This document shows, in pieces, positions 2,607-49,400 of a stretch of DNA of 50,512 bases. The stretch comes from a virus (taxonomy: Duplodnaviria > Caudoviricetes), in IMG/VR virus record IMGVR_UViG_3300038365_000119, positions 1 to 50,512 of that record; one strand, written 5' to 3'. The notes beneath the pieces are model-generated. The model was given only the letters and a program-made list of their open reading frames with translations. It was not told where the DNA came from and ran no database searches. Position numbers and translations under genes: made by a program. Each line of letters begins with the position of its first letter. Within the stretch, counting starts at the first letter, position 1.

Positions 2607-2626
2607 TGTCAATAGTAAATGCGAAA
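2607..2626 (+). repeat. Left terminal inverted repeat
   Basis: tgtcaatagTAAATGCGAAA, 29 bp beyond the transposase stop; matches the reverse complement of 49382-49400 (tgtaacatTAAATGCGAAA). Confidence 0.65.
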
Positions 2627-2654
2627 AAAATATAAAAAATTATATTTCAAGGGG

Positions 2655-3695
2655 TTAGACAAGCGCGGCGACGCATTCCCGGAACATCATTTCGGCGGTT
2701 TTCCAACCAAATATCGCCCGCGGGTAGTTGTTCACCCATTCTTCAAGCTTCTTGATTGCGGCGACGGTGACTTTCCCAAAATCGGTTCCTTTCGGGTACT
2801 GTCGCCGTATCATTTTGTTCTGATTCTCGTTTGACCCTCTTTCGAAACTACTGTACGGGTGGCAGTAATAGAACTTTGTGCGCGGCCCTTTCCTGATTGC
2901 GGACCTTTCAAGCCTTTTCACGTCGGAGAACTCCACCCCGTTGTCAACCGTGATCGTTTGGAACACCTTTTTGAACAGCGGGCCGTACCGCCTTTCGATT
3001 CGGTCAAGGCCCTTGATCGTGCTTTCCTCGGTCCGGTCCTTGATCGGCTCTATGATCTCTTTCCGGGTCAACCGCTCCGTGAGTACAAGAAGCGTTTTCT
3101 TTGAAGATTTTTTCGCGCTGTAAACGGTATCCATTTCCCAATGACCGAACGTTTCCCGCGCGTCGATCTCCGCCGGGCGGTTCTCTATGCTTTCCCCGCG
3201 CGGCGGGCGCTTCATCTTTTGAACTTTATGATAGGGGCGTTTCTTTTTCGGCTTCACGGGCAAATCATTGTTCGTGAGATGAAGAAATACCCCTTTTTCA
3301 ATATAGCTGTATAGGGTGCTTGTGCAAATAGTAGTTTGGAACTCTATTCCTTTTTGCTTTATCTCCCCAAGAGCGGCGGCGGGGGAATAGTCCTCTTCTA
3401 TTATTTTTTCCTCTATGTAATCGACAAGCTTAAAATCTCTTCCGATTTTCAGCGGCGCGCCTTTCGCGGAAAGGTTTTCCCGGTACTTCTTTTCGGCTTC
3501 GTCCGGGTTGTAGCGGATTTCGGTTGTCCAGTCGGTATTTAGATGCGTGTATGTCCCGCGCTTCAATTCCCGGTATACCGTGCTGATATGCACATGTAGT
3601 TCCTCTGCAATTTCCGCCGGGCCGTGCCCGTTGTTCCGCAATGCTTCGATTTTATAGCGGTCTGTCTTTGAAAGATGTTTGAATCTGCGCCCCAT
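2655..3695 (-). CDS. IS30-family DDE transposase (346 aa), probable phage integrase/excisase
   Basis: N-terminal HTH (FKHLSKTDRYKIE..HISTVYRELKRG); DDE motifs GHWEMDTV, TITVDNGVEF, YSSFERGSNENQN; ATG at 3695 after GGAGGT RBS. Confidence 0.93.
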   Translation of the reverse strand: MGRRFKHLSKTDRYKIEALRNNGHGPAEIAEELHVHISTVYRELKRGTYTHLNTDWTTEIRYNPDEAEKKYRENLSAKGAPLKIGRDFKLVDYIEEKIIEEDYSPAAALGEIKQKGIEFQTTICTSTLYSYIEKGVFLHLTNNDLPVKPKKKRPYHKVQKMKRPPRGESIENRPAEIDARETFGHWEMDTVYSAKKSSKKTLLVLTERLTRKEIIEPIKDRTEESTIKGLDRIERRYGPLFKKVFQTITVDNGVEFSDVKRLERSAIRKGPRTKFYYCHPYSSFERGSNENQNKMIRRQYPKGTDFGKVTVAAIKKLEEWVNNYPRAIFGWKTAEMMFRECVAALV

Positions 3696-3713
3696 ATCAT
3701 TACTACCTCCATA

Positions 3714-3756
3714 GGAAAAACCCCGCCCATGCTTCGGTGCAAGGACGGGGCTTTCC
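3714..3756 (-). terminator. Terminator-like hairpin in the transposase leader
   Basis: Minus strand gccccgtccttgc..gcatgggcgggg followed by ttttt, just before the RBS. Confidence 0.5.
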
Positions 3757-3804
3757 GCGTTGTCCGCGGGCGGTAATTTTCCTCTTGCTCCCTCGGTTGC
3801 TATA

Positions 3805-3837
3805 ATTATAGCACGGGGGATATACTCACGCAAGTAT
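3805..3837 (-). promoter_or_regulatory. Sigma-A-type promoter of the transposase with operator over the -35
   Basis: TTGCGT (3833-3828), 17 bp, TG-c-TATAAT (3810-3805); operator ATACTCACGCAAGTAT at 3822-3837. Confidence 0.7.
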
Positions 3838-3862
3838 AAAATAATATGGGATAGGAACGATA

Positions 3863-4105
3863 TTATTCTTGTGTCATCAGCCAATCAAGGCTTACGCCTA
3901 ATATTTTAGATAGTGCCATGAGTTCATAGTCTGCGACAAACCGGGTTCCGCTTTCAATTCGGCTTACGCTGTCCCGCTCCATTGTGATACCTGCTATCTG
4001 CAATTTCGCGGCAAGGTCGGCTTGCGTCATGCGTTGTTTTAACCTCGCTTCCCTCACGCGTCCGCCGCAAAGGTTACTTTTTCCTTTGTAGCCATATATT
4101 TTCAT
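3863..4105 (-). CDS. XRE-family HTH transcriptional regulator
   Basis: RVREARLKQRMTQADLAAKLQ..RDSVSRIESGTR HTH_3 pattern. Confidence 0.85.
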   Translation of the reverse strand: MKIYGYKGKSNLCGGRVREARLKQRMTQADLAAKLQIAGITMERDSVSRIESGTRFVADYELMALSKILGVSLDWLMTQE

Positions 4106-4120
4106 TTTTATCCTCCGGGT

Positions 4121-4189
4121 GTGCTAATGTTCAGCATCATTCTTGACTTTAACACCAAAAACGCGGATAATTGTGTTAATAATCAGCAC
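4121..4189 (+). promoter_or_regulatory. Promoter flanked by two imperfect palindromic operators
   Basis: TTGACT (4143-4148), 17 bp, GATAAT (4166-4171); GTGCTAATGTTCAGCAT (4121-4137) and GTGTTAATAATCAGCAC (4173-4189). Confidence 0.5.
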
Positions 4190-4258
4190 GCCCGAATCGA
4201 ACCGGGCATAAATAAAATAGCCGCCCTGAAAGGCGGCAGAATGGAGGAATCAAATAAT

Positions 4259-4717
4259 ATGGCGGCAAAGGTTGAATATCGTGGGGGTATCCCCGAATTG
4301 CGCAAAACAGGGCTTACCGTAGCAGACGCTTTCCCTGATTATCTGTCTGTTAGTTCTCCGGGGTTTAGTTTCAAGAGCTATAAAATTCCCTATGAAAGTA
4401 TGACTGATATTTCTTTAGTGCCGGAGGGCGCTAAAAAAAAGAACTATGTTCTAAACATTGAATATAGTTCGAATGATTTTCAGTCTTGCATAATTCTTAC
4501 TGGAAAAGAAGTTTCTTCGCTTTATGGCTCCTTGCAAAAAGCCCGTCAAAAGTTCTTTCAGCGACACCCGAATAAAGTCATCAGTTCGCCGGAATCTTCT
4601 TCCCCTACTTTAGATACTCCTACCGAAATAGAGAAACTTTTTAATCTGAAAGAAAAGGGAATCATAACGGAAGAGGAATTTTTTGCAAAGAAAACGCAAC
4701 TTTTAGGCATTGAATAG
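4259..4717 (+). CDS. SHOCT-domain accessory protein
   Basis: C-terminal EIEKLFNLKEKGIITEEEFFAKKTQLL is a SHOCT motif; start placed after GGAGG at 4243. Confidence 0.7.
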   Translation: MAAKVEYRGGIPELRKTGLTVADAFPDYLSVSSPGFSFKSYKIPYESMTDISLVPEGAKKKNYVLNIEYSSNDFQSCIILTGKEVSSLYGSLQKARQKFFQRHPNKVISSPESSSPTLDTPTEIEKLFNLKEKGIITEEEFFAKKTQLLGIE

Positions 4718-5471
4718 AATAGGGGTGGTAATATTGGGGTTCGGCAACTGGGATGAAAAAACGCATTTGATTCCCGAACAACAAAAACGTCTTTTTGTTG
4801 CAATGAAAGCAGACGTTACGCCATCAGAAGTTGACACTGCAAGCCAAACCGCTGTTTTTAAGGGTTCCGGAAAGAAGCTTTATGTAACTACTCTAAATTC
4901 CTGCACGTGCGGGGATTTTTTGTGCCGTAGACTACCCTGTAAACACATTTACCGGCTTGCCTTAGAACTCGGCATGATTGAGGGTGACTATGATTCAGGT
5001 CGGAATAAAAACGCATTATCCGATGATGTTTCCTGTCTTAAAGAAGAGGCGCAAAAGCTTCTATATGATATGTGTGTTGCGAGCATTTATCATCAGGAAA
5101 AACAATTTCTGTTTCGTAGGGATAAAATTTCCGAATCGCTTCTTACACACGGATTTTGTGTTGAATCAATTCCAGACTTGGATTATTTCGCTCAATGTCC
5201 AGTTTCGCAAATAAAGTCTATCCTATTTTCTGGTATCTCTTCCAATCTTCCAAAGCGTAACGCGCAAAAGAAAACCTTTATAAAATGGATTTCTGAAAAC
5301 GCTGGATACTCCCTTGAAGTTCTTCGTTCAAACTTTATTGTACTTGAATTTTCTTCGCAAACAAAAGATTTTCAAAGCACCATTCATAGACGGTTGGCAA
5401 AAAAATTCGGTTGTAGCGATTCAAAGTGTGACGATTTCGTAATTGAAATTCGCGCAAATCTTACAAAATAG
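4710..5471 (+). CDS. SWIM zinc-finger accessory protein
   Basis: YVTTLNSCTCGDFLCRRLPCKHIYRLA fits CxCx(n)CxH; AT-rich; start uncertain. Confidence 0.7.
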   Translation: MNRIGVVILGFGNWDEKTHLIPEQQKRLFVAMKADVTPSEVDTASQTAVFKGSGKKLYVTTLNSCTCGDFLCRRLPCKHIYRLALELGMIEGDYDSGRNKNALSDDVSCLKEEAQKLLYDMCVASIYHQEKQFLFRRDKISESLLTHGFCVESIPDLDYFAQCPVSQIKSILFSGISSNLPKRNAQKKTFIKWISENAGYSLEVLRSNFIVLEFSSQTKDFQSTIHRRLAKKFGCSDSKCDDFVIEIRANLTK

Positions 5472-5490
5472 GATTATACTTCATCAAAAG

Positions 5491-5519
5491 AAAACAGCGG
5501 GCGACTTGCCCGCTGTTTT
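5491..5519. terminator. Bidirectional intrinsic terminator
   Basis: aaaacagcgggc-gactt-gcccgctgtttt between convergent genes. Confidence 0.75.
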
Positions 5520-5520
5520 C

Positions 5521-5805
5521 TTATTTTCCAAGCGCCCGGCGGACGATGAACCGGGCGTATACCTCGCCTATATCCTCTATTGACTGAACCTGTGAAAAAT
5601 CCTCCCCGGCGCATACGGCTTCAAAGATCGTCCCATAGAATGCCGCCCGATTTTCTGCCGGTTGCCGTTCGATGATTTTTCGGACCCGCTCGAACGTGCG
5701 CGTCCCCAGCACTGTTTGAAGCTTCACGCGCTCTTCGTCCCGCTCAACCGTTGCCCTGATCGCTTCTATGAACGCCGGGTGGAACGTCGCGCTATTTTGA
5801 TTCAC
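5521..5805 (-). CDS. Hypothetical protein
   Basis: 94-aa ORF overlapping the upstream gene's end and stopping at a terminator. Confidence 0.6.
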   Translation of the reverse strand: MNQNSATFHPAFIEAIRATVERDEERVKLQTVLGTRTFERVRKIIERQPAENRAAFYGTIFEAVCAGEDFSQVQSIEDIGEVYARFIVRRALGK

Positions 5806-6061
5806 GTTTCTTCCTCTCTTCCTCCGCCGCGGCCTGAACCGCTCTACCGAACTCTTCTTTGCTCCATCCTAAAACCAGCAATGCTTTTTCATCGGTCGCC
5901 GATTCGACAAGAGCGTTCAGGCTTTCATATCCTCCGGCCTCCACCGCTTTCTGATAAACGGCTTTCTTCCCAAGCTCAATATACGGATAGAGGCGGTCGT
6001 AATTCTCGCCGTTATATTTGTTCTTTGCGCGGGTCGCCGATGTGCCTTTCCTTTCAGCCAT
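5792..6061 (-). CDS. Small DNA-binding protein, RHH/antitoxin-like
   Basis: ATG at 6061 after GGAGG; RAKNKYNGENYDRL..GKK..ESLNALV pattern typical of small Firmicutes RHH-like regulators. Confidence 0.6.
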   Translation of the reverse strand: MAERKGTSATRAKNKYNGENYDRLYPYIELGKKAVYQKAVEAGGYESLNALVESATDEKALLVLGWSKEEFGRAVQAAAEEERKKRESK

Positions 6062-6087
6062 CTTTTGACCTCCTTTCGGTTTCTCCC

Positions 6088-6195
6088 ATTGTATCACGTT
6101 TCTTATACTCACGCAAGTATAACTTTTGCATAATATCACGTGAGTATATTTGTTCAAAATTCCCCCTTGATTTAATACTCACGTGAGTATATAAT
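6088..6195. promoter_or_regulatory. Divergent promoters with three palindromic operators
   Basis: Minus: TTGCGT-17-TACAAT. Plus: TTGATT (6167)-17-TATAAT (6190). Operators at 6105-6120, 6132-6147 and 6175-6190 (last is the perfect palindrome ATACTCACGTGAGTAT). Confidence 0.75.
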
Positions 6196-6235
6196 AGAGC
6201 CATAGAGAACAGAAAGACGAACGGAGGAATTCAAG

Positions 6236-6586
6236 ATGACGTTTTGCGAAATGTACGAAAAGAATTGTGCGGAATGCCCGAACCGCTATGTATGTGAGAA
6301 CAGCACCATAAAGCCCAAAATGCGGGCCGGGAAAACATACAAAGGATTTAGCCGGGCGCAACTGATTGATATTTTAGCCGAATACGCCGTGTTCACCGCG
6401 AAAGTCAACAATAACCACGGCGGGGCAAAGATGAACACCGTAAAAAGCGATTATGTCGGTTTATATCAGACGTACCCGCTGTCCTCAAAAAAATATCTGG
6501 TTTTTTCGCTATCGGTCATGTACGACAAGATGAACACTGAAATTGAAAAGGCAAAAGAAATCGCTTCCTTTTCGGTTTTACGGTAA
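6236..6586 (+). CDS. Hypothetical protein with Cys-rich N-terminus
   Basis: GGAGG RBS and promoter upstream; FCEMYEKNCAECPNRYVC. Confidence 0.65.
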   Translation: MTFCEMYEKNCAECPNRYVCENSTIKPKMRAGKTYKGFSRAQLIDILAEYAVFTAKVNNNHGGAKMNTVKSDYVGLYQTYPLSSKKYLVFSLSVMYDKMNTEIEKAKEIASFSVLR

Positions 6587-6596
6587 GATCGCAAAG

Positions 6597-6659
6597 CCCG
6601 CCCGATGATGGCTTGCCGGGAACAAGCCGAAACCCCCGAACGGGGGTCGCGGGAACCCG
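6597..6659 (+). ncRNA. Putative variant type I hammerhead ribozyme
   Basis: Stem I cccgc/gcggg; core CCGAUGA plus extra U; stem II ggcttg/caagcc; GAAA; stem III ccccc/ggggg; GUC site at 6646-6648. Confidence 0.6.
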
Positions 6660-6770
6660 TCGGCATAGGGGACAACATGCCGCCCCTTTTATATAGATTG
6701 TTCTTTGACAACATCATAAATCGAAAAGGCAAAGGAAAACGCTTCCTTTGCAGAAGCGGCGAAATGGGGA

Positions 6771-7010
6771 ATGAACATGAACAAGGTTAGGCGCGCCGCA
6801 CTCCGCGAAATCATCGACAAGATCGCCGACGCAAAGGACGCGCTGGAAATACTGAAAGATGAAGAAGAGGAATACCGCGACAACATTCCCGAAAACCTGC
6901 AAGGCTCCGAACGGTATCAAACCGCCGATGAAGCTTGCGACGCTCTGTATGAAGCCGTCAGCCAGCTTGAAGAGGCTGGCGACAATATCGAAACTACCGT
7001 GGGCGAGTAG
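6771..7010 (+). CDS. Small acidic coiled-coil phage protein
   Basis: 79-aa ORF, MNKVRRAAL...EEEEYRDNIPENLQGSERY; followed by a terminator. Confidence 0.7.
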   Translation: MNMNKVRRAALREIIDKIADAKDALEILKDEEEEYRDNIPENLQGSERYQTADEACDALYEAVSQLEEAGDNIETTVGE

Positions 7011-7020
7011 CGCCCAACAG

Positions 7021-7058
7021 AAAAAGCCCGCCGTGGGTAAAACCTCGGCGGGCTTTTT
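7021..7058. terminator. Bidirectional terminator at the end of the late operon
   Basis: aaaaagcccgccg...cggcgggcttttt. Confidence 0.8.
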
Positions 7059-7091
7059 GTCCGAATCGGTCAAAAATCGTTCGGCTTTGTT

Positions 7092-7388
7092 TTAACTGTT
7101 GCTGTTGCTCTTGCCGTCCGTGACGCGCTGTACGGCGCTGAAAGCTCCGTTTGCGCTCATGGATACAAGGATAGCATTCAGCGGCAGAATGGCCCACACG
7201 GTCCATTCCGCGACGAATCCGGCGGTTGCGGCGGTCGCCGCAAAGAGAATCACCAGCGCGATAACGTAAGAAACGATCTGCGTGGGGATTTTGGAGAACC
7301 AGCCCTTGACGAACTGCGTAATAATCCCCGTCGCCGTCGCCGCGCCCGCGAAAGTCGCCAAAGTCTGCCATGTAAAAAATTCGTTCAC
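7092..7388 (-). CDS. Holin-like membrane protein
   Basis: Three hydrophobic segments, next to the endolysin; GTG start after GGAGGG. Confidence 0.7.
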   Translation of the reverse strand: MNEFFTWQTLATFAGAATATGIITQFVKGWFSKIPTQIVSYVIALVILFAATAATAGFVAEWTVWAILPLNAILVSMSANGAFSAVQRVTDGKSNSNS

Positions 7389-7417
7389 TGTTTTTCCCTC
7401 CGTTATTGTTTTATTTG

Positions 7418-8521
7418 TCAGCCTACAACCCGGCAAGCAGATTCAGGCACCCAGCCGATCTGCCCCAAGAGAACGCCGCACTTCCGGCCCGCAATGTACC
7501 GGGTGACGGTGTACGTCCCGTTCACGCTCTTTCCGGGACCCTCGCCGTAGCTGTCGGAATACAGCGTGCCGGAATACTTCACGGTCGCTCCGACGCGCAT
7601 TTTCGGAGCGGGGGCGGGTACGGGGGTCGCGGCACTGTACGGGCCGCGAATGTCGCCGTCATTGACGAAACAAAGCCCATTGTCCAGCAAATAGGGATTG
7701 TGCCGCCCCGGATACGTCTTTGTGATTGTGCCGTGGTTGCGCAACATTTTACTTTCCGGAATCGCTTTTTCGGTTCCGTCCGTGCTGGAGGCGTAACAGG
7801 TCGAAAAAACGACGTGTTCGCCGACGCTGTGCGCAAGCGCGGGAGCCGGAGCCGCCGGGGCCGGTGTGGGAGTGGGAGCCGGGGCGCTTGCCTGTCCTTT
7901 CTTGTTGTTCAGACCGGCGTTTTTGATAAGGGCCGCGTAATCCTTGTACGCAATGTCCATGTCAACGCGCCCGCCGATACCCGCAACGGATCCGTCGGAA
8001 GTGTACTGCCACATTCCGAAATCCCCGCCGTAAGTCGGTTTGTCGGTCCACTGTGCAAGCCAGATGTCAAACCGCTTTACCCGGTCAACGTCAATGCGGT
8101 TTTTCAGCCAGTCAAGGTTCGTGTATACCGACACGTAATAACCGGCCTTTTCGACGGTATCGCAAAACGCAACGATGATGTCCGTTATGCGGTCGCGCCC
8201 AAGATCGCGCTGGCTCTTGTCCTCGATGTCGAACGCCACCGGGAAGTCGAACGAATATCCCTTGATGATGTCAAGAAAGAACGCGGCTTCCTGCTTCGCC
8301 TCTTCGACGGTGGTGGCGTAGCTGTAATGATACGCGCCGCAAAGAATCCCTGCGGCTTTCGCGCCGGTCATGTTCGCGTGGAACTGTGCGTCCGTCTGCT
8401 TTGCCTTGTTTTCCTTGCCAAAGCTGGACCGAATCATAGCAAACTCAATTCCTGCGGCTTTTACCTTGTTCCAGTCGATCACGCCTTGCCATTTCGAAAC
8501 GTCAATGCCTTTTCTGCTCAT
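7418..8521 (-). CDS. Endolysin: GH25 muramidase with C-terminal cell-wall-binding domains
   Basis: KGIDVSKWQG, GAYHYSYA, PVAFDIED, MWQYTSDGSVAGIGGRVDMD; Pro/Ala linker. Confidence 0.9.
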   Translation of the reverse strand: MSRKGIDVSKWQGVIDWNKVKAAGIEFAMIRSSFGKENKAKQTDAQFHANMTGAKAAGILCGAYHYSYATTVEEAKQEAAFFLDIIKGYSFDFPVAFDIEDKSQRDLGRDRITDIIVAFCDTVEKAGYYVSVYTNLDWLKNRIDVDRVKRFDIWLAQWTDKPTYGGDFGMWQYTSDGSVAGIGGRVDMDIAYKDYAALIKNAGLNNKKGQASAPAPTPTPAPAAPAPALAHSVGEHVVFSTCYASSTDGTEKAIPESKMLRNHGTITKTYPGRHNPYLLDNGLCFVNDGDIRGPYSAATPVPAPAPKMRVGATVKYSGTLYSDSYGEGPGKSVNGTYTVTRYIAGRKCGVLLGQIGWVPESACRVVG

Positions 8522-8633
8522 TGTTTTTTTACCTCCATAAAATAAAATGTGTTGAAAAATGACCCTTTTCGGGTCCGCGGTAAGGGGTCGAAAAATCAGA
8601 TCATACCACCACCCCCTTGAAGCGGCGCGCGGC

Positions 8634-8951
8634 TCATTTTTGGGCCGCGGCGCTCTCCATCCTGTCAATCCGTTTGTGTGCCTGTTTTGCGGATTCTTCC
8701 ACGCTTGTCAGCCGGGCAATAACTTCAATGTGCTGGGCTTCCTGCTTTTCGTCCTGTCGTTCCTGCTTTCGCTTGATGTCGTCGATTCCGGATTTTATGT
8801 ATCCGATTTCGGTTAGGACGGTTCCGTTTTTTGCGCCGTCGCCTTGATCGTCTTTCTTTCGGTTCCGGTTAAAAGCCGCATACCCGAATACAATGGCGCA
8901 CACGGTACTGATACCCCCAAGAACGGCGATTACAGCGTTTAACTCATTCAA
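8634..8951 (-). CDS. Lysis-module membrane/coiled-coil protein (holin or XhlA-like)
   Basis: N-terminal TM segment, C-terminal VEESAKQAHKRID; start overlaps the RT stop. Confidence 0.6.
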   Translation of the reverse strand: MNELNAVIAVLGGISTVCAIVFGYAAFNRNRKKDDQGDGAKNGTVLTEIGYIKSGIDDIKRKQERQDEKQEAQHIEVIARLTSVEESAKQAHKRIDRMESAAAQK

Positions 8952-10033
8952 TTTTCCACCTCCGCTTCCCGATAGATTCGGTTCAGCTTTTGCCGGAACC
9001 CGTAACTGTTGAAGTGTTTCAGCATTCCCCGATAGGAAGCGATACTTCGATCAAAAGTTTCCCGCGAAATCTCGCCGCTTTTAAGCGCCGACGAAAGGAA
9101 TTTGACGCGGCTTTGAATCTTCTGCGCGGTTTTCTTCTTTAGCTTCCGGTGCGTCGCCCATATCCGGTAGCCGACAAAATCAATTCCCATACTGCACGGC
9201 CTGATTGCGGTTTTCCTGTTCAGGTTCAGCCGCAATTTGTCGTTCATGAAAGCTTCGATCTCTTGCTTTACCTGTGCAAGAAAACGCTTGTCCGGGTGAA
9301 GAATGATAATGTCGTCCATGTACCGGACGTAATAGTGAAGCCGTAGAACGTGCTTCGCGTATTGGTCCACTTCGTTCAAATAAAGGTTTGCGAACATTTG
9401 CGACGTGAGATTGCCTATCGGCATTCCCACGTCGTCCAGCCATTCGTCCGGCCCGATTGCGTCGGGGTCGCACCCCAGCGGCAAGCCGAATTTCGTATCT
9501 TCGCATTGAATGATCGTCGTAAGCAGATCGATTAGTGTTTTGTCCTTGATTTTCCGGTTTAGAATCTCAATCAGCACTTCATGATCTACCCGGTAGAAAT
9601 ATTTCGAAACGTCCAGTTTCAGGTAATAATACCGTTCCGGCTTCCGCTCCGTTTGCCGTAACCAATACTGCAAGCGGTTTGCGGCCCGGTGCGAGCCTTT
9701 CCCTTTCCTGCAAGCGTAGGAATCGAAAATGAACTGCTTTTCAATGAGCGGGAAAAGCTGCCGGTATATCGCCCATTGAACCACGCGGTCACGGAACGGC
9801 AACGCCATGACAAGCCGCTTTTTCGGCTCGAACACGTAAAACGGGCGGTACTTGCCCGCCCGATAAGTCCCGTATATGAAATGGTTCTGAATATCTATCA
9901 GGTTCGATTCAAGGTTTCTGGAAAATCTCATGACCTCTTCGCGGTATCGCTTGCCTTTCCGCGCGGATTCCCAAGCCTGATAAATGTTTTCAAAATCATA
10001 AATTTTAGGGAATAGGCCCTTGATCGTTTCCGT
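8948..10033 (-). CDS. DGR reverse transcriptase (~361 aa, apparent ACG start)
   Basis: PFRDRVVQ, YLKLDVSKYF, GMPIGNLTSQMFANLYL, YVRYMDD, GIDFVGY; frame stays open 34 codons upstream of the ORF-track ATG to an ACG after AGGAGG; next to TR and avd. Confidence 0.93.
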   Translation of the reverse strand, partial: TETIKGLFPKIYDFENIYQAWESARKGKRYREEVMRFSRNLESNLIDIQNHFIYGTYRAGKYRPFYVFEPKKRLVMALPFRDRVVQWAIYRQLFPLIEKQFIFDSYACRKGKGSHRAANRLQYWLRQTERKPERYYYLKLDVSKYFYRVDHEVLIEILNRKIKDKTLIDLLTTIIQCEDTKFGLPLGCDPDAIGPDEWLDDVGMPIGNLTSQMFANLYLNEVDQYAKHVLRLHYYVRYMDDIIILHPDKRFLAQVKQEIEAFMNDKLRLNLNRKTAIRPCSMGIDFVGYRIWATHRKLKKKTAQKIQSRVKFLSSALKSGEISRETFDRSIASYRGMLKHFNSYGFRQKLNRIYREAEVEN

Positions 10034-10237
10034 TTTGCGTTCCCTCCTTTATGCCCACCGCCATCCCCACTGTCCCCTCCGTACTCGCCGGACGTGGCAC
10101 GACTTCGCCGAATGGTTACTGAATGCTTTCCCGGCAATTCAATCTTTTTTCCGCTGGTCGCGGAAAGGGAAGTGAACCCCTTTACACCCTCGCGCTGGAC
10201 GAAACGCCGTGGCGGGTCGCCTACTGGCAAAGAGTAG

Positions 10238-10353
10238 AGCGGCGCGGAAGCCGATGTTGTGATTCACGTTCGAGCGCGGATTGTTCAAGTTCAGGGCACC
10301 CACGCCCGCGTTGGACGCATTGTTCCAGTTCGCCCCGCGATACGGCAACCGCT
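10238..10353 (-). ncRNA. DGR template repeat (TR), 116 bp
   Basis: Lies between avd and RT; ten AAC/AAT codons; differs from both VRs only at adenines. Confidence 0.95.
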
Positions 10354-10386
10354 AAAAACTATACGGCTCACTCCCCGCGAAAGCCG

Positions 10387-10740
10387 CTATTTAACGGTTT
10401 TCATATACCCGCCGATCATGCGCCCGATTTCGTCCAGACACCGCGCCCAAAACTCATATTTTTTGAACGGTAAGCAGGGCGCTTGATTCGGGTATAGCCT
10501 TTTGTCTGCCGCCATCCGTATAAGGTGCCGTAAAACGTCAAGTTCAATGTCCAATTCCTGCAACGTCGTTTTCTTGTAATATTTCTTTTCGATTGCAACG
10601 GCAAGTTCGAACATTCGGTACATGGATTCCCGGATTTTGCTGGCCAGCACGTATTTTTCGGATTTCGGAAACTGAATCAGGGCTGGGCTTCCGTAAAGAA
10701 TCATGTCGTAAATCTTTTCCTTGATCTTGAATTCTTCCAT
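10387..10740 (-). CDS. avd: DGR accessory variability determinant (four-helix bundle)
   Basis: QFPKSEKYVLASKIR...KKTTLQELDIELDVLRHLIR...EIGRMIGG; sits between the target gene and TR. Confidence 0.9.
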   Translation of the reverse strand: MEEFKIKEKIYDMILYGSPALIQFPKSEKYVLASKIRESMYRMFELAVAIEKKYYKKTTLQELDIELDVLRHLIRMAADKRLYPNQAPCLPFKKYEFWARCLDEIGRMIGGYMKTVK

Positions 10741-10761
10741 GCCATACCCTTTCAAGCATAA

Positions 10762-10781
10762 GGGCGGGCTTTCGCCCGCCC
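10762..10781 (-). promoter_or_regulatory. DGR target-recognition hairpin after VR1
   Basis: Minus strand gggcgggc-GAAA-gcccgccc just after the target stop; matching hairpin after VR2. Confidence 0.75.
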
Positions 10782-10797
10782 GTCAGTTATTCGGTTT

Positions 10798-11877
10798 TCA
10801 GTTCCCAGCGGTTCCATAAAAAGCGGCGCGGAAGCCGATGTTGCGAAACACGTGCGAGCGCGGAGCGCTCAAGTTCAGGGCACCCACGCCCGCGTAGGAC
10901 GCATAGTACCAGCTCGCCCCGCGATACGGCAACCGCTCCGCTTCGTGGTTTCTAAGCCAAAAGTGATTCCCTGCGCTTGTAAATCCGGAATCGGGATAAA
11001 GCCCCAGCCCTTTCAGCAGTTGCGGAACATTCACGCCGTCGGCGGCGGAAATGTTTTTCAGATCGTCGTTTCTGTCGCCCTCTCCGCTTGACGGGAATTC
11101 AACCGCCGTGTTCAGCCTGATTCCTCCGCTCGCGCTTTTCCCGTCAAATTTTAGGGTTCCCGCGGTCCCCGGCGCGACAAGCGAACCGTCCGGCATGATC
11201 GCTTTCCATTCCGTGCTGTCCGCTCCCATGTTGCAATCCGCTTTCATGGCGTTGCCGTATGGGATAATCTGAATTTCACCGGTCACAAGGCGCAACCCGG
11301 AAACCCATTCCCACACATTCCCGCAAAGGTCCGCGATGCCCGAACTGTCGTAATTGTGATACCACGTAACCGGTCCGCTCCCCGTCGCGGTTCTGCCGTT
11401 GTAGGTGTTGCCGCCGTCTGTGTACGTGTAGGAAACAACGCCCTTTTCAAAAGCGTTGTTGTAGTCCTTTCCGTAATTGGTATTCCCGTGCGGCTCCGTC
11501 TTGTTTTTATAGCACCAGTTCATAAGCGCCCCCCAAAGGGCGTTCGTTTGCAGGTGCCACCCCGCCCCTTTGTTCCGGCAGACCTGCAAGGCGGTATCAA
11601 AGTCAATGCTCGCGCGGGGGTCCTTGAACGGCAGGGAATAGGCCCGGTCGCTCACGACGATGTTTTGATATTTGCTTTCGTAGATCACCGGGATTTCCAC
11701 GCCGTCAACAAGGAACGCCGGAAGCGTGTCCTGCGTCCCGCCCGTGATAACGTCGGCGTATTTCTGGACCGGGATGGCCACCATGATCGACGGCATTCCC
11801 AAGTCGTCCAGAATCACGGTGTTTTTCCCGCCGCTCAACGATTCGACGGCAAGTTTCAGGTCATCAAAATTTGTCAT
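10798..11877 (-). CDS. DGR target protein 1 (FGE-sulfatase/C-type lectin fold), probable receptor-binding protein
   Basis: DLCGNVWEW and C-terminal RGASW...IGFRAA; contains VR1; at the end of the tail module. Confidence 0.88.
   Translation of the reverse strand: MTNFDDLKLAVESLSGGKNTVILDDLGMPSIMVAIPVQKYADVITGGTQDTLPAFLVDGVEIPVIYESKYQNIVVSDRAYSLPFKDPRASIDFDTALQVCRNKGAGWHLQTNALWGALMNWCYKNKTEPHGNTNYGKDYNNAFEKGVVSYTYTDGGNTYNGRTATGSGPVTWYHNYDSSGIADLCGNVWEWVSGLRLVTGEIQIIPYGNAMKADCNMGADSTEWKAIMPDGSLVAPGTAGTLKFDGKSASGGIRLNTAVEFPSSGEGDRNDDLKNISAADGVNVPQLLKGLGLYPDSGFTSAGNHFWLRNHEAERLPYRGASWYYASYAGVGALNLSAPRSHVFRNIGFRAAFYGTAGN
10822..10937 (-). repeat. DGR variable repeat VR1
   Basis: 116-bp match to TR with 11 substitutions, all at TR adenines. 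Confidence 0.95.
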
Positions 11878-11896
11878 TGTTCTTTACCTCCATAAA

Positions 11897-12271
11897 TTAG
11901 ACCAACGCCCAAAGCGTCAGCGTTACATTGTCCATGCTGAACGGGACCGGCTCGCGCTTGATGTTCGGCGTGTGTTCCATGCCGCCGTTCTCTCCGCTTT
12001 CTCCGCCGTCCTCGCCGCCGCTCTCCGGCTCTTCCACCGTTTCCGTGTACTCGCGCGCCGGAATGTCGATCTGTGCCACATAAGCTTCCGCAATGCCCGG
12101 AATCACGCCTGAAACAAGGTTCCCGTATTTATCCCGGCACACGTCAAGGTGGTTTGCGTCGTCCCGTTCATAGCGTTCAAGGTTGAACATCAGTTCATCG
12201 TTCAGGGCAAGCTTGTTCCCGCTCTCGGTGTAGGGGATTTTTTCACCGCTGTTTTTCTCAATGACGATCAT
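11897..12271 (-). CDS. Tail-region hypothetical protein
   Basis: 124-aa ORF in the late operon. Confidence 0.65.
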   Translation of the reverse strand: MIVIEKNSGEKIPYTESGNKLALNDELMFNLERYERDDANHLDVCRDKYGNLVSGVIPGIAEAYVAQIDIPAREYTETVEEPESGGEDGGESGENGGMEHTPNIKREPVPFSMDNVTLTLWALV

Positions 12272-12443
12272 TTTTCTTTCCCTCCATTTTTTTCATGGTT
12301 TCCATAGCCTCCCGTGACCGGGCCGCTATGCACTCCGCCGCTTCGCGGTCGGCGGCTGTCACTTTCGCACCGCCGCGGAAGCTTTCAAGCACATAAGTTT
12401 CATGCCGGCGGCGCTCTTCCGACTTCAATAAAATATTTGCCAT
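12258..12443 (-). CDS. Small hypothetical protein
   Basis: 61-aa ORF overlapping both neighbours. Confidence 0.55.
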   Translation of the reverse strand: MANILLKSEERRRHETYVLESFRGGAKVTAADREAAECIAARSREAMETMKKMEGKKNDRH

Positions 12444-12940: not shown

Positions 12941-12943
12941 CTG

Positions 12944-13261
12944 TTATACCTCCTGTTCATCTTCGCGCAAATCGAACGTGAAACGGTATAAAACGCCCTC
13001 TTGTACGCTTTCGATCAAGATATTTTCCGTCTTTTCCGCCCAAACAGCGTTGTTTGTGTTGAAAAGCTGAACGCCGCTGATCGTGACAGTCTGCCCGGCT
13101 TCCGGGATAATCGAAAAATACACGGCAATTTTCCCGTCTGCCAGCCGTTCTCTCCGGCTGATCGGAACTTTGTGCCATGTATCGCCGATCTTGTATTTTG
13201 CGTATGCAATTTCGCGGTCTGTGTACTGCTTGTAGCCCTCTATTGCCTCCGGTGAAAGCAT
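12944..13261 (-). CDS. Tail-region hypothetical protein
   Basis: 105-aa ORF in the operon. Confidence 0.6.
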   Translation of the reverse strand: MLSPEAIEGYKQYTDREIAYAKYKIGDTWHKVPISRRERLADGKIAVYFSIIPEAGQTVTISGVQLFNTNNAVWAEKTENILIESVQEGVLYRFTFDLREDEQEV

Positions 13262-13279
13262 AATATCAGTCCCCTTTCT

Positions 13280-15708: not shown

Positions 15709-15722
15709 CGATTCGTCCCCCT

Positions 15723-43421: not shown

Positions 43422-44246
43422 CTATTCTTTCTTTCTCAATTTTAGGTAGATTGACCAGCCTGTTACCGGGTTGTATTCATAGGCCGCGCCGTAATCGTCG
43501 TCCGTCGTCAGGGTCCAGCCGGGGTACTTCTTTTCCCAAAACTCCCGGCCCGGTCGCTCCTTTGCAATTTTTTCAACCTGTCGGCGGGTGTACCGTCCAT
43601 CATTTGCCCGGCTTGTAGGCCGTTCAAGATTCTGCGACGTGGAATACCGCTTTTTCCCTCCGGGTTGCTTCGCAAGGTAGTTGCATAGGGCGGCAATTCC
43701 GTTTTCGTCCGATTGTAGGCGGTCGGCGTTGATATACCCGATTTTGTCGCCTTTCTTCTGTCCTTTCCGTTTTCGCTTGCGCCACAACTCTTCGACGGTG
43801 TTACGGTCAAGCCCGCTGTTCATGATGATGTGATGATGAATTCGGGTCGGCTTCTCGCCTTCCTTGCCTGTGCTGTACGCTGTCACAAGAATGTATTTCA
43901 GGGGCGGCAACCCCTCTTTCTCCCGGCGGTACTGGACCCGGCGCAAGTAGTTTGAAATTTCACGTTCTGCGGCCTCAATGGTCGGAGGAAGATTTTTCGC
44001 GCTGTATGTAGCCGTGACGTGAAGAGCATTTTCATCACTTCCGAAATTCAGGTTCCCAAGCTGTACCAAATACCGCCGGGCGTTCTTGTCGTTCAGGTTT
44101 TTTTGCTTCGGGGCCGATTCTTTGACTTTTTTTGAACGCTTCCCGCGGCGTGAAACTGTAACCTGTTCCGTGGAATACCCGAAAATATCAACCTCCCTGT
44201 ACTGATCGCCGCAATATATCTTCTTTTCTCTCATGAAGCTTCGCAC
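43422..44246 (-). CDS. HUH-superfamily rolling-circle-type replication initiator
   Basis: Motif I HVTATY, motif II RIHHHIIMN, motif III LCNYLAK, then YSTSQNL. Confidence 0.75.
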   Translation of the reverse strand: MRSFMREKKIYCGDQYREVDIFGYSTEQVTVSRRGKRSKKVKESAPKQKNLNDKNARRYLVQLGNLNFGSDENALHVTATYSAKNLPPTIEAAEREISNYLRRVQYRREKEGLPPLKYILVTAYSTGKEGEKPTRIHHHIIMNSGLDRNTVEELWRKRKRKGQKKGDKIGYINADRLQSDENGIAALCNYLAKQPGGKKRYSTSQNLERPTSRANDGRYTRRQVEKIAKERPGREFWEKKYPGWTLTTDDDYGAAYEYNPVTGWSIYLKLRKKE

Positions 44247-44600: not shown

Positions 44601-44717
44601 TTGACTTTTCCGCCGCTTTATGATATACTCACGTTAGGTTGATAAGTGATGTATTTTCATCGGCGGAATCCCGCTCCGTGGCTTGCTCTCTCAAAGCAGA
44701 CACGGGGCGGTTTTCTT
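44601..44717 (+). ncRNA. Putative ~80-nt antisense RNA with its promoter, upstream of rep
   Basis: TTGACT (44601), 17 bp, TG-a-TATACT (44624); hairpin 44671-44710 followed by ttttctt; opposite to the early operon. Confidence 0.55.
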
Positions 44718-44957: not shown

Positions 44958-44979
44958 CGGACGGGCTTTCGCCCGTCCG
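44958..44979 (-). promoter_or_regulatory. DGR target-recognition hairpin after VR2
   Basis: Minus strand cggacgggc-GAAA-gcccgtccg, same context as the VR1 hairpin. Confidence 0.75.
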
Positions 44980-44994
44980 TCAGTCATTCGGTTA

Positions 44995-45954
44995 TCAGTT
45001 TTCAGTTTTGCGATAGAAAGCGGCGCGGAAGCCGAAGTTGTGATACACGTTCGAGCGCGGACTGATCAAGTGCAGGGCACCCACGCCCGCGTTGGACGCA
45101 TTGATCCAGTACGCCCCGCGACACGGCAACCGCTCGCCCTCGGTATCAACCCATAACCATCCGTCGTTTTCAGCGTCGGAGGCGGGGAAGAGGGACAGGG
45201 CTTTCAACAGTTCGGGGGCTTCAATGTCAGCTTCTACGTCTGCCCAGCGGCAACCGTCCCAATCCTCGCCGCTCTCTTCATTCGTCAGCCGAATACTGCC
45301 GTCGTCAACCGCGTACCGCGTCGGCTTGCCGTCAAACAGAACAGGGGTCCAAAGCTTGCTTTTTTCGGAAGTGTCAACCGGATTCGCGGCGTTGTTGTTC
45401 TCGATCACCTGAATTTCTCCGTTCATCAGCCGCAAGCCCGCAATCATTTCCCACACGTTGCCGCAAAGGTCCTGAACCCCGTATGGGGTGTGGTCGTGCG
45501 CCCATGTCGCCGGGCCGCTCCCAGCAAGCGTCATTCCTCCGTAAGCGCAAACCTCGCCGCGCTCCGACGGGTCCGCATGGTAGCTTCCGAATTTCGTATT
45601 TCCGTGCGGCGGGGTGCCTTTCCGCTTGCTGTCAAGCACAAGAAACGCCGATTCCGGCAAGGTCATCAAATGCCAGCCAGGTCCTTTCGAAAAACAGGCT
45701 TCCGCCGCCTGTTCGTTCGTCAGGCCGGTGGCGGGCTTCATGTAGGGCATGGAGTAGGCTTTTCCGTTGATGATCGTGTTCGGGTACTTCGAAATGAAAA
45801 TTTCGTCCACCTCTTTGCCGTCAATGATGAACATAGGGTGGGTGGTGTCGGAGCCGCCGGGGAACAGGTCGGAATTTTTCTCTTTCGTGAAGCGCACCAT
45901 GATAGACGGAATCCCCGCTTCATCGAAAACCACCACGTTGTTTGCGTTAATCAT
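44995..45954 (-). CDS. DGR target protein 2 (paralog of target 1) in the early region
   Basis: GIPSIMV, ISKYPN, GWHLMT, PHGNT, GSGPATWAH, DLCGNVWE shared with 10798-11877; contains VR2. Confidence 0.88.
   Translation of the reverse strand: MINANNVVVFDEAGIPSIMVRFTKEKNSDLFPGGSDTTHPMFIIDGKEVDEIFISKYPNTIINGKAYSMPYMKPATGLTNEQAAEACFSKGPGWHLMTLPESAFLVLDSKRKGTPPHGNTKFGSYHADPSERGEVCAYGGMTLAGSGPATWAHDHTPYGVQDLCGNVWEMIAGLRLMNGEIQVIENNNAANPVDTSEKSKLWTPVLFDGKPTRYAVDDGSIRLTNEESGEDWDGCRWADVEADIEAPELLKALSLFPASDAENDGWLWVDTEGERLPCRGAYWINASNAGVGALHLISPRSNVYHNFGFRAAFYRKTEN
45019..45134 (-). repeat. DGR variable repeat VR2
   Basis: 116-bp match to TR with 8 substitutions, all at TR adenines. Confidence 0.95.
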
Positions 45955-47713: not shown

Positions 47714-47877
47714 TTCCGATCACCCGCTTTCAGGGAAATTTCGTATTCCGTCCCGTAGCGACGGCGCTTGCACCTCCAGCACGTGATTTTCTGATTTCTG
47801 CCGCCTACGCGTTTCAGATTGTGCGTTTTTTGAAGTTCAAGGACGCACGGCAAGCAGAATTGACGTTTAATCGCCAT
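47710..47877 (-). CDS. Small Cys-rich basic protein (55 aa, not in the ORF track)
   Basis: MAIKRQFCLPC...KITCWRCKRRRYG; ATGA overlap with the next gene. Confidence 0.5.
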   Translation of the reverse strand: MAIKRQFCLPCVLELQKTHNLKRVGGRNQKITCWRCKRRRYGTEYEISLKAGDRK

Positions 47878-47901
47878 CTTCACCGTTCCTTTTATAAGTT
47901 T

Positions 47902-48162
47902 TTATACCCCGTCGAATTCTGGCATCAATGCCCACCAAATATCGCATTGCTTCTTCATGCGCACTGGGTCGCTTACCCCGCAATGGTGGTGAAACCATAA
48001 CTTTTTTCCGTCGTGGTCGGTTTCAAACGTGCCAACGTCGTACCCCTCTTTATAGGCAAGGGCGGCGTGTCTGTCTTTCGGCGCTATCCGCAAGGCAACC
48101 AAAGTTCCTACGGGCGGTTGATACTCTTTCCGCCGCAAGTCAAGGCGTGTCCACTTTTGCAT
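47902..48162 (-). CDS. Hypothetical protein
   Basis: ATG after GGAGGGG RBS. Confidence 0.5.
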   Translation of the reverse strand: MQKWTRLDLRRKEYQPPVGTLVALRIAPKDRHAALAYKEGYDVGTFETDHDGKKLWFHHHCGVSDPVRMKKQCDIWWALMPEFDGV

Positions 48163-48169
48163 GATGTTT

Positions 48170-48553
48170 TCACCCCTCCGCTTTACAGATTGCCGTATCA
48201 AGCCGCTGGTAAATGCAAACTGCTTCGCGCCCGACGTTCGGGCTTTCCGGCCTGAACTTCACAACATATTCCCGATGGCTCGCGCTTGCGTGTAACTGCT
48301 CGGCGAACCGGATTGCGTTTCTCCATGCCGTCCGCCGGTCCCGCTCCAGCCATGCGGCTTTCTCCGCCTCCTTGCTGTCGAACCGCTCAAACGAATAAAG
48401 GCCACCGGCGATTTCAACCGTAACGCGGAGCGCAAGGGTATAACGCGCGTCGTTTTCGTACTCGCTCCATTCAGCCCGCTTGTTCGGCGCGTTCCTCGAC
48501 GAAATTAGCATAGCCGCCGGGTTGTCCCAATCCGGAAATTGAATTTCTTTCAT
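48170..48553 (-). CDS. Hypothetical protein
   Basis: 127-aa coupled ORF. Confidence 0.55.
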   Translation of the reverse strand: MKEIQFPDWDNPAAMLISSRNAPNKRAEWSEYENDARYTLALRVTVEIAGGLYSFERFDSKEAEKAAWLERDRRTAWRNAIRFAEQLHASASHREYVVKFRPESPNVGREAVCIYQRLDTAICKAEG

Positions 48554-48756
48554 AGTGCGTCCTGCCTTTCTAATGGTTTACCTGTATAGCGGTTCTTTCC
48601 GGTCCGCTCCAATTCGTCCCCGATTCTGCGGCGGACCCGCGCGTCAAGCAAATCAATGAACCTTGTCCATGCTTCAAGCGGGTTTTCGCTTTTGCATTCT
48701 GCCAGCGCATCGTCCGCAACCGCCGAAATATACGCCGTCAACTCCGTTTTCGTCAT
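48550..48756 (-). CDS. Hypothetical protein
   Basis: 68-aa coupled ORF. Confidence 0.5.
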   Translation of the reverse strand: MTKTELTAYISAVADDALAECKSENPLEAWTRFIDLLDARVRRRIGDELERTGKNRYTGKPLERQDAL

Positions 48757-48808
48757 AGGCTCACCCGCCCTTTGCCGGTCGCGGCGTAAATGTCTTTCGG
48801 CTTGTCCA

Positions 48809-49021
48809 TCACCGCGCCGCCTTTCCGACTTTAAGCGTCAACCACCATCCGGGGTTGTTCCGCTGTGCCTCGTTCGGGCACTTGTCGCAATTCTCCGCGG
48901 CGCACCCGGCACAATACCGTTCCTGAAAAGCTTTATCCCACGGACCCTCTAAAATCGGCAGGGACCGCAAGAACGCGCCCAGCGCCTCCGGGCTTTTCGT
49001 CACCCTTTCAAACTCCGTCAC
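48809..49021 (-). CDS. Small Cys-cluster protein
   Basis: GTG after GGAGG; YCAGCAAENCDKCP. Confidence 0.55.
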   Translation of the reverse strand: MTEFERVTKSPEALGAFLRSLPILEGPWDKAFQERYCAGCAAENCDKCPNEAQRNNPGWWLTLKVGKAAR

Positions 49022-49055
49022 CGTCAAAACCTCCGTTCCAGATTCGCCGCGGCTG

Positions 49056-49307
49056 TTATGCTTCGGCAACGACGCGCCCGCGCCGCTTGAAATTGGCTTG
49101 TACCGTCTGCTGTGCAAGAACGGGGTTGTAGCCCTGCCGCTGGTTGCGGTCAAGCTCTCCGGTTGCGCCTCGCTTCAATTCCCGGTAGATCGTCGCCGGG
49201 GTTACTCCCAGCCGTTCGGCAATATCCGCCGGGCGGTCGCCGGACAAATACCATTTCGCAATTTTCCGTCTGTCCTCAAAATCAAGGTATTTATACTTTC
49301 CCGCCAT
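49056..49307 (-). CDS. Stand-alone IS30-type HTH protein (83 aa), first gene of the early operon
   Basis: KYKYLDFEDRRKIAKW..DIAERLGVTPATIYRELKRG..YNP aligns with transposase N-terminus RFKHLSKTDRYKIEAL..EIAEELHVHISTVYRELKRG..YNP. Confidence 0.85.
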   Translation of the reverse strand: MAGKYKYLDFEDRRKIAKWYLSGDRPADIAERLGVTPATIYRELKRGATGELDRNQRQGYNPVLAQQTVQANFKRRGRVVAEA

Positions 49308-49381
49308 GCTTTCACCCCGTTTCCGCTGTGTTTCCGTCTAAAATCAAGCAAAAAAATAAATGCGTCAGAGGCTTGAACCTC

Positions 49382-49400
49382 TTTCGCATTTAATGTTACA
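49382..49400 (-). repeat. Right terminal inverted repeat
   Basis: Reverse complement tgtaacatTAAATGCGAAA shares an 11-bp core with the left end. Confidence 0.65.

Follow-up and report, generated by a model that had tools for sequence, protein, structure and literature searches.

The stretch of DNA analysed here, referred to throughout as the window, is a virus record of 50,512 bp from IMG/VR (IMGVR_UViG_3300038365_000119), rated complete by CheckV, in which host DNA flanks a prophage on both sides and nearly all phage genes lie on the minus strand. The element under study spans positions 2601-49407 (46,807 bp) and carries an outward-facing transposase gene of the IS30 family of insertion sequences (IS) at one end and, at the other, an inward-facing gene for a short protein with a helix-turn-helix (HTH) domain only. 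It can be regarded with high confidence as an intact temperate myovirus of the type described as Lagaffe or IScream phages, built on an IS30-family transposon chassis in place of an integrase and its attachment (att) sites. This reading is carried by directly established features. For the element itself, these are its exact ends, the target duplication, an empty site and the lack of any other recombinase; relatives contribute abutted junctions with spacers that vary, and the promoter halves and the hairpin are conserved. A first-pass annotation of the sequence had proposed that the transposase excises and integrates the whole phage as a circle, adding that the class might already have been reported under the name 'IScream'; it has indeed been published, as the main texts of PMC5883640 and PMC12823448 make clear. 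The features at the two ends of the element are as follows.

2586-2600, no strand: left copy of the target-site duplication, 15 bp, AAAATAAAAAAAATT, abutting the element end and identical to 49408-49422
2601-2623, minus: transposase-proximal inverted repeat (IRR), 15 outer nt plus the 8-nt core TAAATGCG, holding TTGACA (2607-2612), the -35 half
2655-3695, minus: IS30-family DDE transposase, 346 aa, outward; HTH_38 (E 1.8e-11) and rve (E 1.1e-08)
49056-49307, minus: HTH_38-only protein, 83 aa, inward; HTH_38 (E 4.3e-13); starts 100 nt from the right end
49350-49392, minus: terminator-like hairpin (49357-49392) with T-run (49350-49356), its 5' arm being the IRL core; RNAfold dG -17.5, z -6.8 against shuffles
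49385-49407, minus: transposase-distal inverted repeat (IRL), holding TAACAT (49393-49398), the -10 half
49408-49422, no strand: right copy of the target-site duplication, 15 bp, abutting the element end

Two of these features, the inward HTH_38-only open reading frame (ORF) at 49056-49307 and the 15-bp direct repeat at both ends, had been missed in the first-pass annotation.

Ends, empty site and transposase

The ends of the element were set from the abutted inverted repeat (IR) junctions of relatives, each IR comprising an 8-nt core and 15 outer nt, and one IMG/VR contig (L070) begins precisely at the base equivalent to the IRL end. The refined terminal IRs are 23 nt long and imperfect, with 16 of 23 positions matching, while an extended pairing of 2599-2626 with 49382-49409 covers 28 nt at 75% complementarity. 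The IR pair previously claimed at the phage ends is real, but the shared 11-mer core offered for it does not by itself exceed chance (2 matches against 2.08 expected at ≤1 mismatch), and the evidence for the IRs rests on their position, on the relatives and on the empty site. A scan for a third IR returned 16 non-self matches at ≥15/23, compared with 3-17 in 20 shuffles, and none of them lies in the region upstream of the transposase (3696-4120). This agrees with the earlier statement that no cognate IR precedes the transposase gene, whose start is at 3695, and excludes the interpretation of the left end as a stand-alone IS.

The two copies of the target duplication match at 15 of 15 positions, and a longer direct repeat of 22 nt can be drawn at 95% identity. 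To look for the empty site, 24 nt of the right flank were searched as an exact pattern in the metagenome collection; this gave one contig (L151), in which sequence equivalent to window 185-2606 (98.39% identity) is contiguous with sequence equivalent to window 49409-50512 (98.64%), with a single target copy. Since the flanks are joined there with one copy of the target, the whole stretch between the two IRs represents one insertion, and because the occupied and empty host sequences differ by only ~1.5%, the insertion is recent. Six loci that carry relatives of the lysozyme/SH3 protein of the left flank did not provide an empty site, as neither cold-shock protein (csp) nor rubrerythrin-like genes were present there within 6 kb.

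The transposase stop codon lies 54 nt from the left element end. The ORF has a longer TTG-start frame (2655-3884), and the 346 aa are counted from the ATG at 3695. In support of the earlier description of an intact IS30 DDE transposase, HTH_38 and rve domains are both present, and an alignment of 11 transposases (the window and ten relatives) shows no variation at D189, D251 or E290. The transposase is 59.7% identical to that of phage Lagaffe and 51.9% identical to that of Clostridium phage Saumur. The absence of tyrosine and serine recombinases, which the first-pass annotation had asserted, was confirmed by six-frame profile searches of the whole window, with no match to PF00589, PF00239 or PF07508 at E≤1, the same profiles being positive in 14, 13 and 6 of 14 control genomes, respectively. 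Exactly one rve domain was found by six-frame search. With regard to Mu-like features, this sole rve domain is of the IS30 type, the duplication is 15 bp and the terminase is GpA-type, no search having been aimed specifically at MuB.

Junctions, duplications and small elements in relatives

By transposase similarity, 59 IMG/VR loci with 48-66% identity were collected, of which 57 were examined, L053 and L061 being left out as their transposase match runs into the contig end. An IRR-like motif (a core like CGCATTTA followed by TTGAC) occurs within 130 nt of the transposase stop at 41 of the 57 loci. At eight loci (L020, L033, L036, L037, L042, L043, L045 and L046), the transposase match is interrupted or extended, spanning ~1.36-1.42 kb, with further coding sequence after the match and no IRR within 130 nt; these may be fusions, or their end may lie further out. 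An abutted IRR-IRL junction is present at 14 of the 57 loci, 13 of them found by script and L049 by eye. The spacers of these junctions are listed below.

L013-L017 and L021 (six near-identical contigs): GT, AT, CA, AA, AG, AG (five different dinucleotides)
L010 and L011: AC and AA
L030-L032: GA
L038, L049 and L052: CC, AC and CT

The spacer between the abutted IRs is 2 bp and differs among near-identical phages; in IS30, the spacer of the circle junction is 2 bp. The deposited Lagaffe genome (NC_047911) likewise contains an IR-IR junction, downstream of its transposase. In the assembly of genome G342 (L124, G342:C18 14127-17360), the left end of an integrated prophage and an IRR-AA-IRL junction are joined by a 10-N scaffold gap, and both the integrated and the circular form are evidently present in the sequenced DNA. 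In this one example, the junction spacer (AA) is the same as the dinucleotide next to IRL in the integrated copy, as would be left if the IRR end attacked a single strand 2 nt beyond IRL, which suggests an order of strand transfer.

The junctions share a second property. A sigma-70-like promoter is formed at 16 of 16 natural junctions (15 loci and G342, about eight lineages), with the -35 element TTGAC(A/T) in IRR and the -10 element TAnnAT in IRL, at a spacing of 16-18 nt and with 9-11 of 12 consensus matches, and a promoter-scanning tool independently finds it in L013 (10/12) and Lagaffe (9/12). In the window, the halves TTGACA (2607-2612) and TAACAT (49393-49398) would be 17 nt apart given a 2-bp spacer. 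The predicted promoter points into IRL, toward the HTH-only gene and the early genes on the same strand, rather than at the transposase, which is located 46 kb downstream on that strand. As judged from the arrangement of the halves, this promoter would exist, and be active, only in the non-integrated genome.

Target duplications were examined in 13 integrated elements with both ends available, including the window. Two contigs of one metagenome (L023 and L066) were assumed to be two ends of one prophage, and G160 was left out because its two ends lie on different contigs, with no IRR within 160 nt. The elements fall as follows.

Exactly 15 bp (8 of 13): the window; L023+L066; G003; G342; G215; G363; G372; G089
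14 bp (1 of 13): G399
No duplication (4 of 13): G001; G004; G278a; G278b

The nine duplicated sequences are all different, which identifies them as target duplications and not as an att core. The 15-bp repeat was considered as an att core and rejected on this ground, and also because the free junction retains a variable 2-bp spacer only. The expectation that relatives keep the same end architecture at other loci is thus borne out, with different flanks and 15-bp duplications in 8 of the 13. As to the elements without a duplication, G278a and G278b are two copies in one genome, between which rearrangement is possible. G004 (L027/L073; an 80.6-kb IMG/VR record) and G001 (L008/L072) have clear IRs at both ends and no matching duplication, and 44 kb of other sequence lies ahead of IRL in G004; rearrangement between copies, tandem elements or chimeric assembly are possible explanations for these two.

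Related elements occur without a phage. In G211, a stand-alone IS of ~1.3 kb from the same IS30 sub-clade is present in five near-identical copies (L117, L120-L123), with a transposase 42% identical to that of the window; its duplications are 15 bp in two copies, 13 bp in one and absent or unclear in two, and it has -35-like and -10-like halves of its own at the ends. No separate HTH gene is present in this IS, and no IRL hairpin was noticed in it. Among 401 sampled genomes of the host's order, 23 contain a relative of the transposase at E≤1e-70, and four smaller elements with the same two end genes were located (loci L096, L097, L101, L118, L125, L129, L130 and L146):

G278:C1 2061378-2064028: ~2.7 kb
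G278:C1 2443133-2450326: ~7 kb
G215:C16 79683-86537: ~7 kb
G089:C1 1279121-1290626: ~11.5 kb

Their order is IRL, hairpin, HTH-only gene, cargo, transposase and IRR, those in G215 and G089 have 15-bp duplications, and the cargo of the 2.7-kb element consists of three small ORFs without a Pfam match. The existence of these small cargo elements means that the chassis is not restricted to whole phages. Taken together, the sequences indicate that the 15-bp duplication is a property of the clade, the duplication in the window element differing from the 2-3 bp by which the IS30 family is otherwise recognised.

The hairpin and the HTH-only gene at the transposase-distal end are conserved as well. Hairpins were located by folding the sequence upstream of each T-run, and a hairpin on the IRL core followed by a T-run was found in 17 of 17 elements (dG -6.2 to -25.1). 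The stems covary between lineages, in that a change in the IR core is matched by the 3' arm and the inner stems differ yet still pair, as assessed by eye. The hairpin is a putative inward-facing intrinsic terminator, which would shield the prophage from host read-through. The HTH-only protein is 38% identical to transposase residues 2-80, and it matches phrog_11420 ('DNA binding protein') with an E-value of 1.6e-37 over positions 3-81 of 82, the match to the transposase PHROG being far weaker (E 5.8e-14); apart from this ORF, nothing similar to the transposase turned up near the right end. When 14 HTH-only proteins were placed in one tree with 16 transposase N-termini, a single branch separated the two groups (support 93/87), a split recovered in 92% of the bootstrap trees. 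A common RRG(R/K) motif lies close to the C-terminus of all 14 HTH-only proteins, and no internal stops are present in the HTH-only matches. With its own PHROG, a separate clade, a shared end point and no internal stops, the HTH-only gene seems to be a retained component of the element instead of random debris; its product may serve as a regulator similar to OrfA or, by binding the IR core, as an inhibitor. The separate clade agrees with the main text of the IScream study, in which outward and inward IS30 proteins cluster separately (PMC12823448).

Phage genes, regulation and host flanks

Between the two ends, the predicted genes of the window make up a full myovirus gene set, as listed below together with two features adjoining the transposase.

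3822-3837, 6105-6120 and 6175-6190, no strand: operator-like 16-bp palindrome ATACTCACG(Y)(R)AGTAT, present at 3 sites (6 strand matches) where 0.04 are expected
3863-4105, minus: XRE/Cro-CI-type HTH_3 regulator, 80 aa, just upstream of the transposase; HTH_3 E 2.8e-09, PHROG repressor/regulator families
7418-8668, minus: endolysin; phrog_291, E 8.9e-58
8948-11877, minus: diversity-generating retroelement (DGR), comprising reverse transcriptase (RT, 8948-9931), template repeat (TR, 10178-10361), bAvd (10387-10755) and a target gene like formylglycine-generating enzyme (FGE, 10798-11877) with variable region VR1 at its 3' end
13280-24021, minus: baseplate, tail, tape-measure (17951-21439) and sheath (22594-24021) genes; PHROGs matches
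25999-30040, minus: major head protein, head protease and portal; PHROGs matches
30303-32117, minus: GpA-type large terminase (TerL); GpA_ATPase E 2.8e-84, GpA_nuclease E 2.9e-95
32098-32592, minus: small terminase; the terminase pair matches phrog_15 and phrog_57
34636-36668, minus: ParB-like and ParA-like genes; phrog_4715 and phrog_164
43422-44246, minus: replication initiation protein; phrog_3584, E 3e-79; PF23343
44995-45954, minus: second DGR target gene, with VR2 (44959-45142) at its 3' end; phrog_2889

The profile matches of the terminase agree with the GpA-type assignment made in the first-pass annotation. The closest TerL matches are those of Saumur (66.9%), followed by Toutatis and Lelie (both 60.7%), and Lagaffe is absent from the top 12; a transposase like that of Lagaffe beside a TerL like that of Saumur implies that the IS30 module is common to phages with different structural modules. 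A megablast search of window 2601-20000 against phage records gave no match. The two DGR targets lie 34 kb apart and both match phrog_2889, the FGE-sulfatase Pfam match being weak, below the curated cut-off and confined to the first target; within the ~116-nt TR/VR core, all mismatches fall at TR adenines. A RecU-like resolvase was also found. The presence of ParA, ParB and a replication initiator in an integrating phage suggests a stable episomal phase.

The palindrome copy at 3822-3837 is placed between the XRE-type gene and the transposase, and this position suggests control of transposase transcription by a repressor. A partial copy is located near 44615-44637. Just upstream of the ribosome-binding site of the transposase, at ~3718-3760, a GC-rich hairpin with a T-run was noticed by eye.

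The left host flank encodes a lysozyme/SH3/Big_2 protein, with relatives at 60-65% identity in Clostridium minihomine, C. merdae, Faecalispora species and two metagenome-assembled genomes, and the right host flank encodes a cold-shock protein and a rubrerythrin-like protein. Two features of the right flank are positioned as follows.

49434-49462, plus: promoter of the cold-shock gene, TTGACA-17-TATACT; promoter scan, 11/12 consensus matches
49588-49797, plus: host cold-shock gene; CSD domain, E 2.2e-28

A stretch of 11 bp separates the target 15-mer from the -35 element of this promoter downstream, and the insertion displaced an A-rich region upstream of the cold-shock gene. A promoter-like sequence (TTGAAC-18-TACAAT with a TG extension, 49373-49402, plus strand, 9/12) faces outward toward the cold-shock gene and may be due to chance.

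Mechanism, rival explanations and known systems

In the mechanism proposed here, the single DDE transposase (2655-3695) would catalyse reactions at the two terminal 23-nt IRs, and by analogy with IS30 one end would attack 2 nt outside the other, with the order of strand transfer being part of the model. The product would be a circular genome in which IRR and IRL abut across a 2-bp spacer derived from the old flank, and this junction would be the substrate of the next integration, in which a 15-bp staggered cut of the target would give rise to the 15-bp duplication. The non-integrated genome would probably replicate episomally by means of its Rep and ParAB genes, and the GpA-type terminase is expected to package unit-length DNA, giving virion DNA with an internal IR-IR junction. 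Only the non-integrated form would unite the -35 half in IRR with the -10 half in IRL, as a promoter directed toward the HTH-only gene and the early genes, and the putative terminator hairpin on the IRL core would follow immediately downstream. Excision and integration of the phage as a circle by its transposase, as originally proposed, is supported by the abutted junctions of relatives (14 of 57 loci, G342 and Lagaffe) and by the empty site.

A more far-reaching interpretation can be offered tentatively, as a possibility that is less probable than not. The junction might be a sensor of the integration state, firing into the HTH-only gene and the early genes when the genome is free, whether in the virion, upon infection or once excised, and being split on integration, with the terminator blocking transcription from the host flank. 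The HTH-only protein would then be an OrfA-like regulator of a single giant IS and not composite debris, and the whole clade, from the 1.3-kb IS and the 2.7-11.5-kb cargo elements to the phages, would use a transpososome with a 15-bp stagger, unlike that of IS30.

Several observations weigh against the interpretation of the prophage as an IS30-type circular transposon or against parts of it. A duplication is missing in 4 of the 13 integrated elements, and no recognisable IRR lies within 130 nt of the transposase stop at 16 of the 57 loci of relatives. The duplication of 15 bp, as opposed to the canonical 2 bp, does not allow a straightforward transfer of the IS30 mechanism. In Lagaffe, the junction falls 1 nt short of the length given by the rule of 15+2+15. 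An exact search of IMG/VR for the 26-nt IRR of the window, from which its own record was possibly excluded, gave 0 matches, and thus no junction or circle of this phage. A simple terminator scan does not call the IRL hairpin, whose stems are bulged, so that the hairpin is founded on RNAfold and on covariation seen by eye, and a terminator placed right behind the junction promoter also speaks against early genes being transcribed simply from that promoter.

Three other explanations of the locus have to be weighed against a whole phage that moves on its two outermost IRs. Loss of activity is the least improbable of them, the prophage being a fixed, immobile remnant with ends and transposase intact in sequence but inactive. 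No relative exceeds 66% transposase identity, IMG/VR yielded neither another copy nor a junction of this very phage, and Lagaffe, as described in the main text of its report, reaches very low titres and is not inducible by DNA damage (PMC5883640). Nevertheless, ORFs are intact in all scanned modules (packaging, head, tail, lysis, DGR, replication, transposase and HTH), the duplication copies have kept full identity (15 of 15 positions), adenines of the template are the only positions at which the DGR variable regions depart from it, and the divergence of ~1.5% between occupied and empty hosts marks the insertion as recent, which together make a remnant unlikely. It is hardly credible, in turn, that an ordinary IS30 copy landed at the edge of a prophage that integrates by some other, unrecognised recombinase. 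IS elements are common passengers of prophages, and phiPV83 and bIL311 are annotated in this way in the tblastn list, but comparison with the empty site places the insertion boundaries at the two IRs, at a distance of 46.8 kb, and the duplication encloses the phage as a whole. A six-frame search gives no tyrosine or serine recombinase, and the same architecture recurs at other sites in relatives of 48-66% identity.

The framing of the class in the literature favours a true composite transposon, in which two IS30 copies, one of them decayed, bracket the phage and each keeps, or recently kept, its own pair of ends. The main text of the 2025 paper presents the class in this manner, with inward copies of 183-4,175 nt (PMC12823448); in addition, homology links the far-end ORF with the N-terminus of the transposase (HTH_38, 38% over residues 2-80), and the stand-alone 1.3-kb IS of the same clade in G211 has no separate HTH gene. 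However, the window contains only two IRs and no inner ends, the HTH-only proteins stand on one side of a branch (93/87) from all 16 transposase N-termini with a common truncation point in 14 of 14, and they match a full-length PHROG of their own (phrog_11420) without internal stops. A composite transposon in the strict sense is accordingly quite improbable, more so than a remnant, and the composite description may apply to the origin of the element and not to its present working. Because there are only two IRs, 'one giant IS' fits the present anatomy better than 'composite transposon', the far-end HTH-only gene nonetheless being a homologue of the transposase N-terminus.

The closest published counterparts are the IScream phages (Wirbel, Hickey et al., Nature 2025, PMC12823448), which according to the main text carry an outward full-length and an inward truncated IS30, number 1,780 candidates in MGV, include a Blautia hansenii genome found by PCR to be circular and DNase-protected, and were compared by their describers to composite transposons; in the available text of a 2026 preprint, the term is used as routine. 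The window resembles them in the lack of a canonical integrase, the outward full-length IS30, the inward truncated ORF, the full phage gene set and the Clostridia hosts, with IS30 ORFs within 1 kb of both ends (54 nt and 100 nt), one of 346 aa with HTH_38 and rve and the other of 83 aa with HTH_38 only, and it differs in none of the defining features. The terms 'inverted repeat', 'target site', 'minicircle' and 'terminal' have 0 occurrences in the main text of PMC12823448, and the available text of the preprint mentions inverted repeats only as part of the general definition of an IS.

Phage Lagaffe (Cornuault et al. 2018, PMC5883640), in the main text of its report, is a 48.3-kb myovirus with a DGR, an 'IS30 TPase' as integrase and direct-repeat flanks, which produces virions, has a cos site upstream of terS and is represented by a 98% identical copy in B. 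hansenii. Like the window, it is a myovirus of ~48 kb with a DGR of RT, Avd and FGE-type target, an IS30 transposase, IR-IR junction and HTH gene in the virion genome, and direct repeats in the host; it differs in its structural module, in the junction shorter by 1 nt, and in having an ERF recombinase (main text of PMC5883640) where the window has the RecU-like resolvase. Clostridium phage Saumur (ON453901), obtained by prophage induction from E. clostridioformis of the OMM12 consortium (PMC10197239), has the TerL closest to that of the window (66.9%). Also shared are an IS30 transposase at one record end (44 bp away from it), an HTH gene at the other and the IRL hairpin, and the host family is different; the paper naming it makes no mention of the transposase (PMC10197239).

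In the searched main texts of the two papers on Lagaffe and IScream phages, there is no account of a duplication of 15 bp, of a 2-bp spacer, of a promoter at the junction or of a hairpin on IRL, some of which may be in their supplements and figures (including Fig. 3b of Cornuault et al., on the direct repeats of Lagaffe); this anatomy appears to go beyond their searchable text and is possibly new. At the level of base pairs, it turns the statement 'probably mobilised by IS30' into simple testable predictions, and the 2-bp junction spacer would record the previous integration site. Precise rules for the ends also help to locate the boundaries of such prophages in genomes, which is useful as the class is reported to be abundant in the human gut (PMC12823448, main text).

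Among transposable elements, IS30 of Escherichia coli forms circles with an active IR-IR junction and a junction promoter (Pjunc), and has a 2-bp target stagger and duplication, according to the consulted part of PMC9333248. The word 'spacer' is absent from that paper. The window element is like it in the HTH and DDE transposase, the imperfect terminal IRs, the circular intermediate with abutted IRs (here in relatives) and a junction promoter recognised by sequence, whereas IS30 measures 1.2 kb with 2-bp duplications and the window element has a 46-kb passenger, a 15-bp duplication, a separate HTH-only gene and an IRL terminator. Long duplications within the IS30 family are known from IS1630 of Mycoplasma fermentans, at 16, 23, 25 and 26 bp (PMC3317919, in the part consulted); their length is variable there, in contrast to the fixed 15 bp (14 once) seen here, and IS1630 has no phage cargo. 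Phage Mu is comparable in that a DDE enzyme stands in place of an integrase, but the window has a GpA-type terminase, with cos packaging shown only for Lagaffe (PMC5883640, main text), a 15-bp instead of a 5-bp duplication and an IS30-type enzyme, and the free genome, as seen in relatives, is circular with abutted ends, as opposed to replication by transposition with host flanks. With an IS30 transposase in place of a phage integrase already in print, the window adds a member, and not a class, to these systems.

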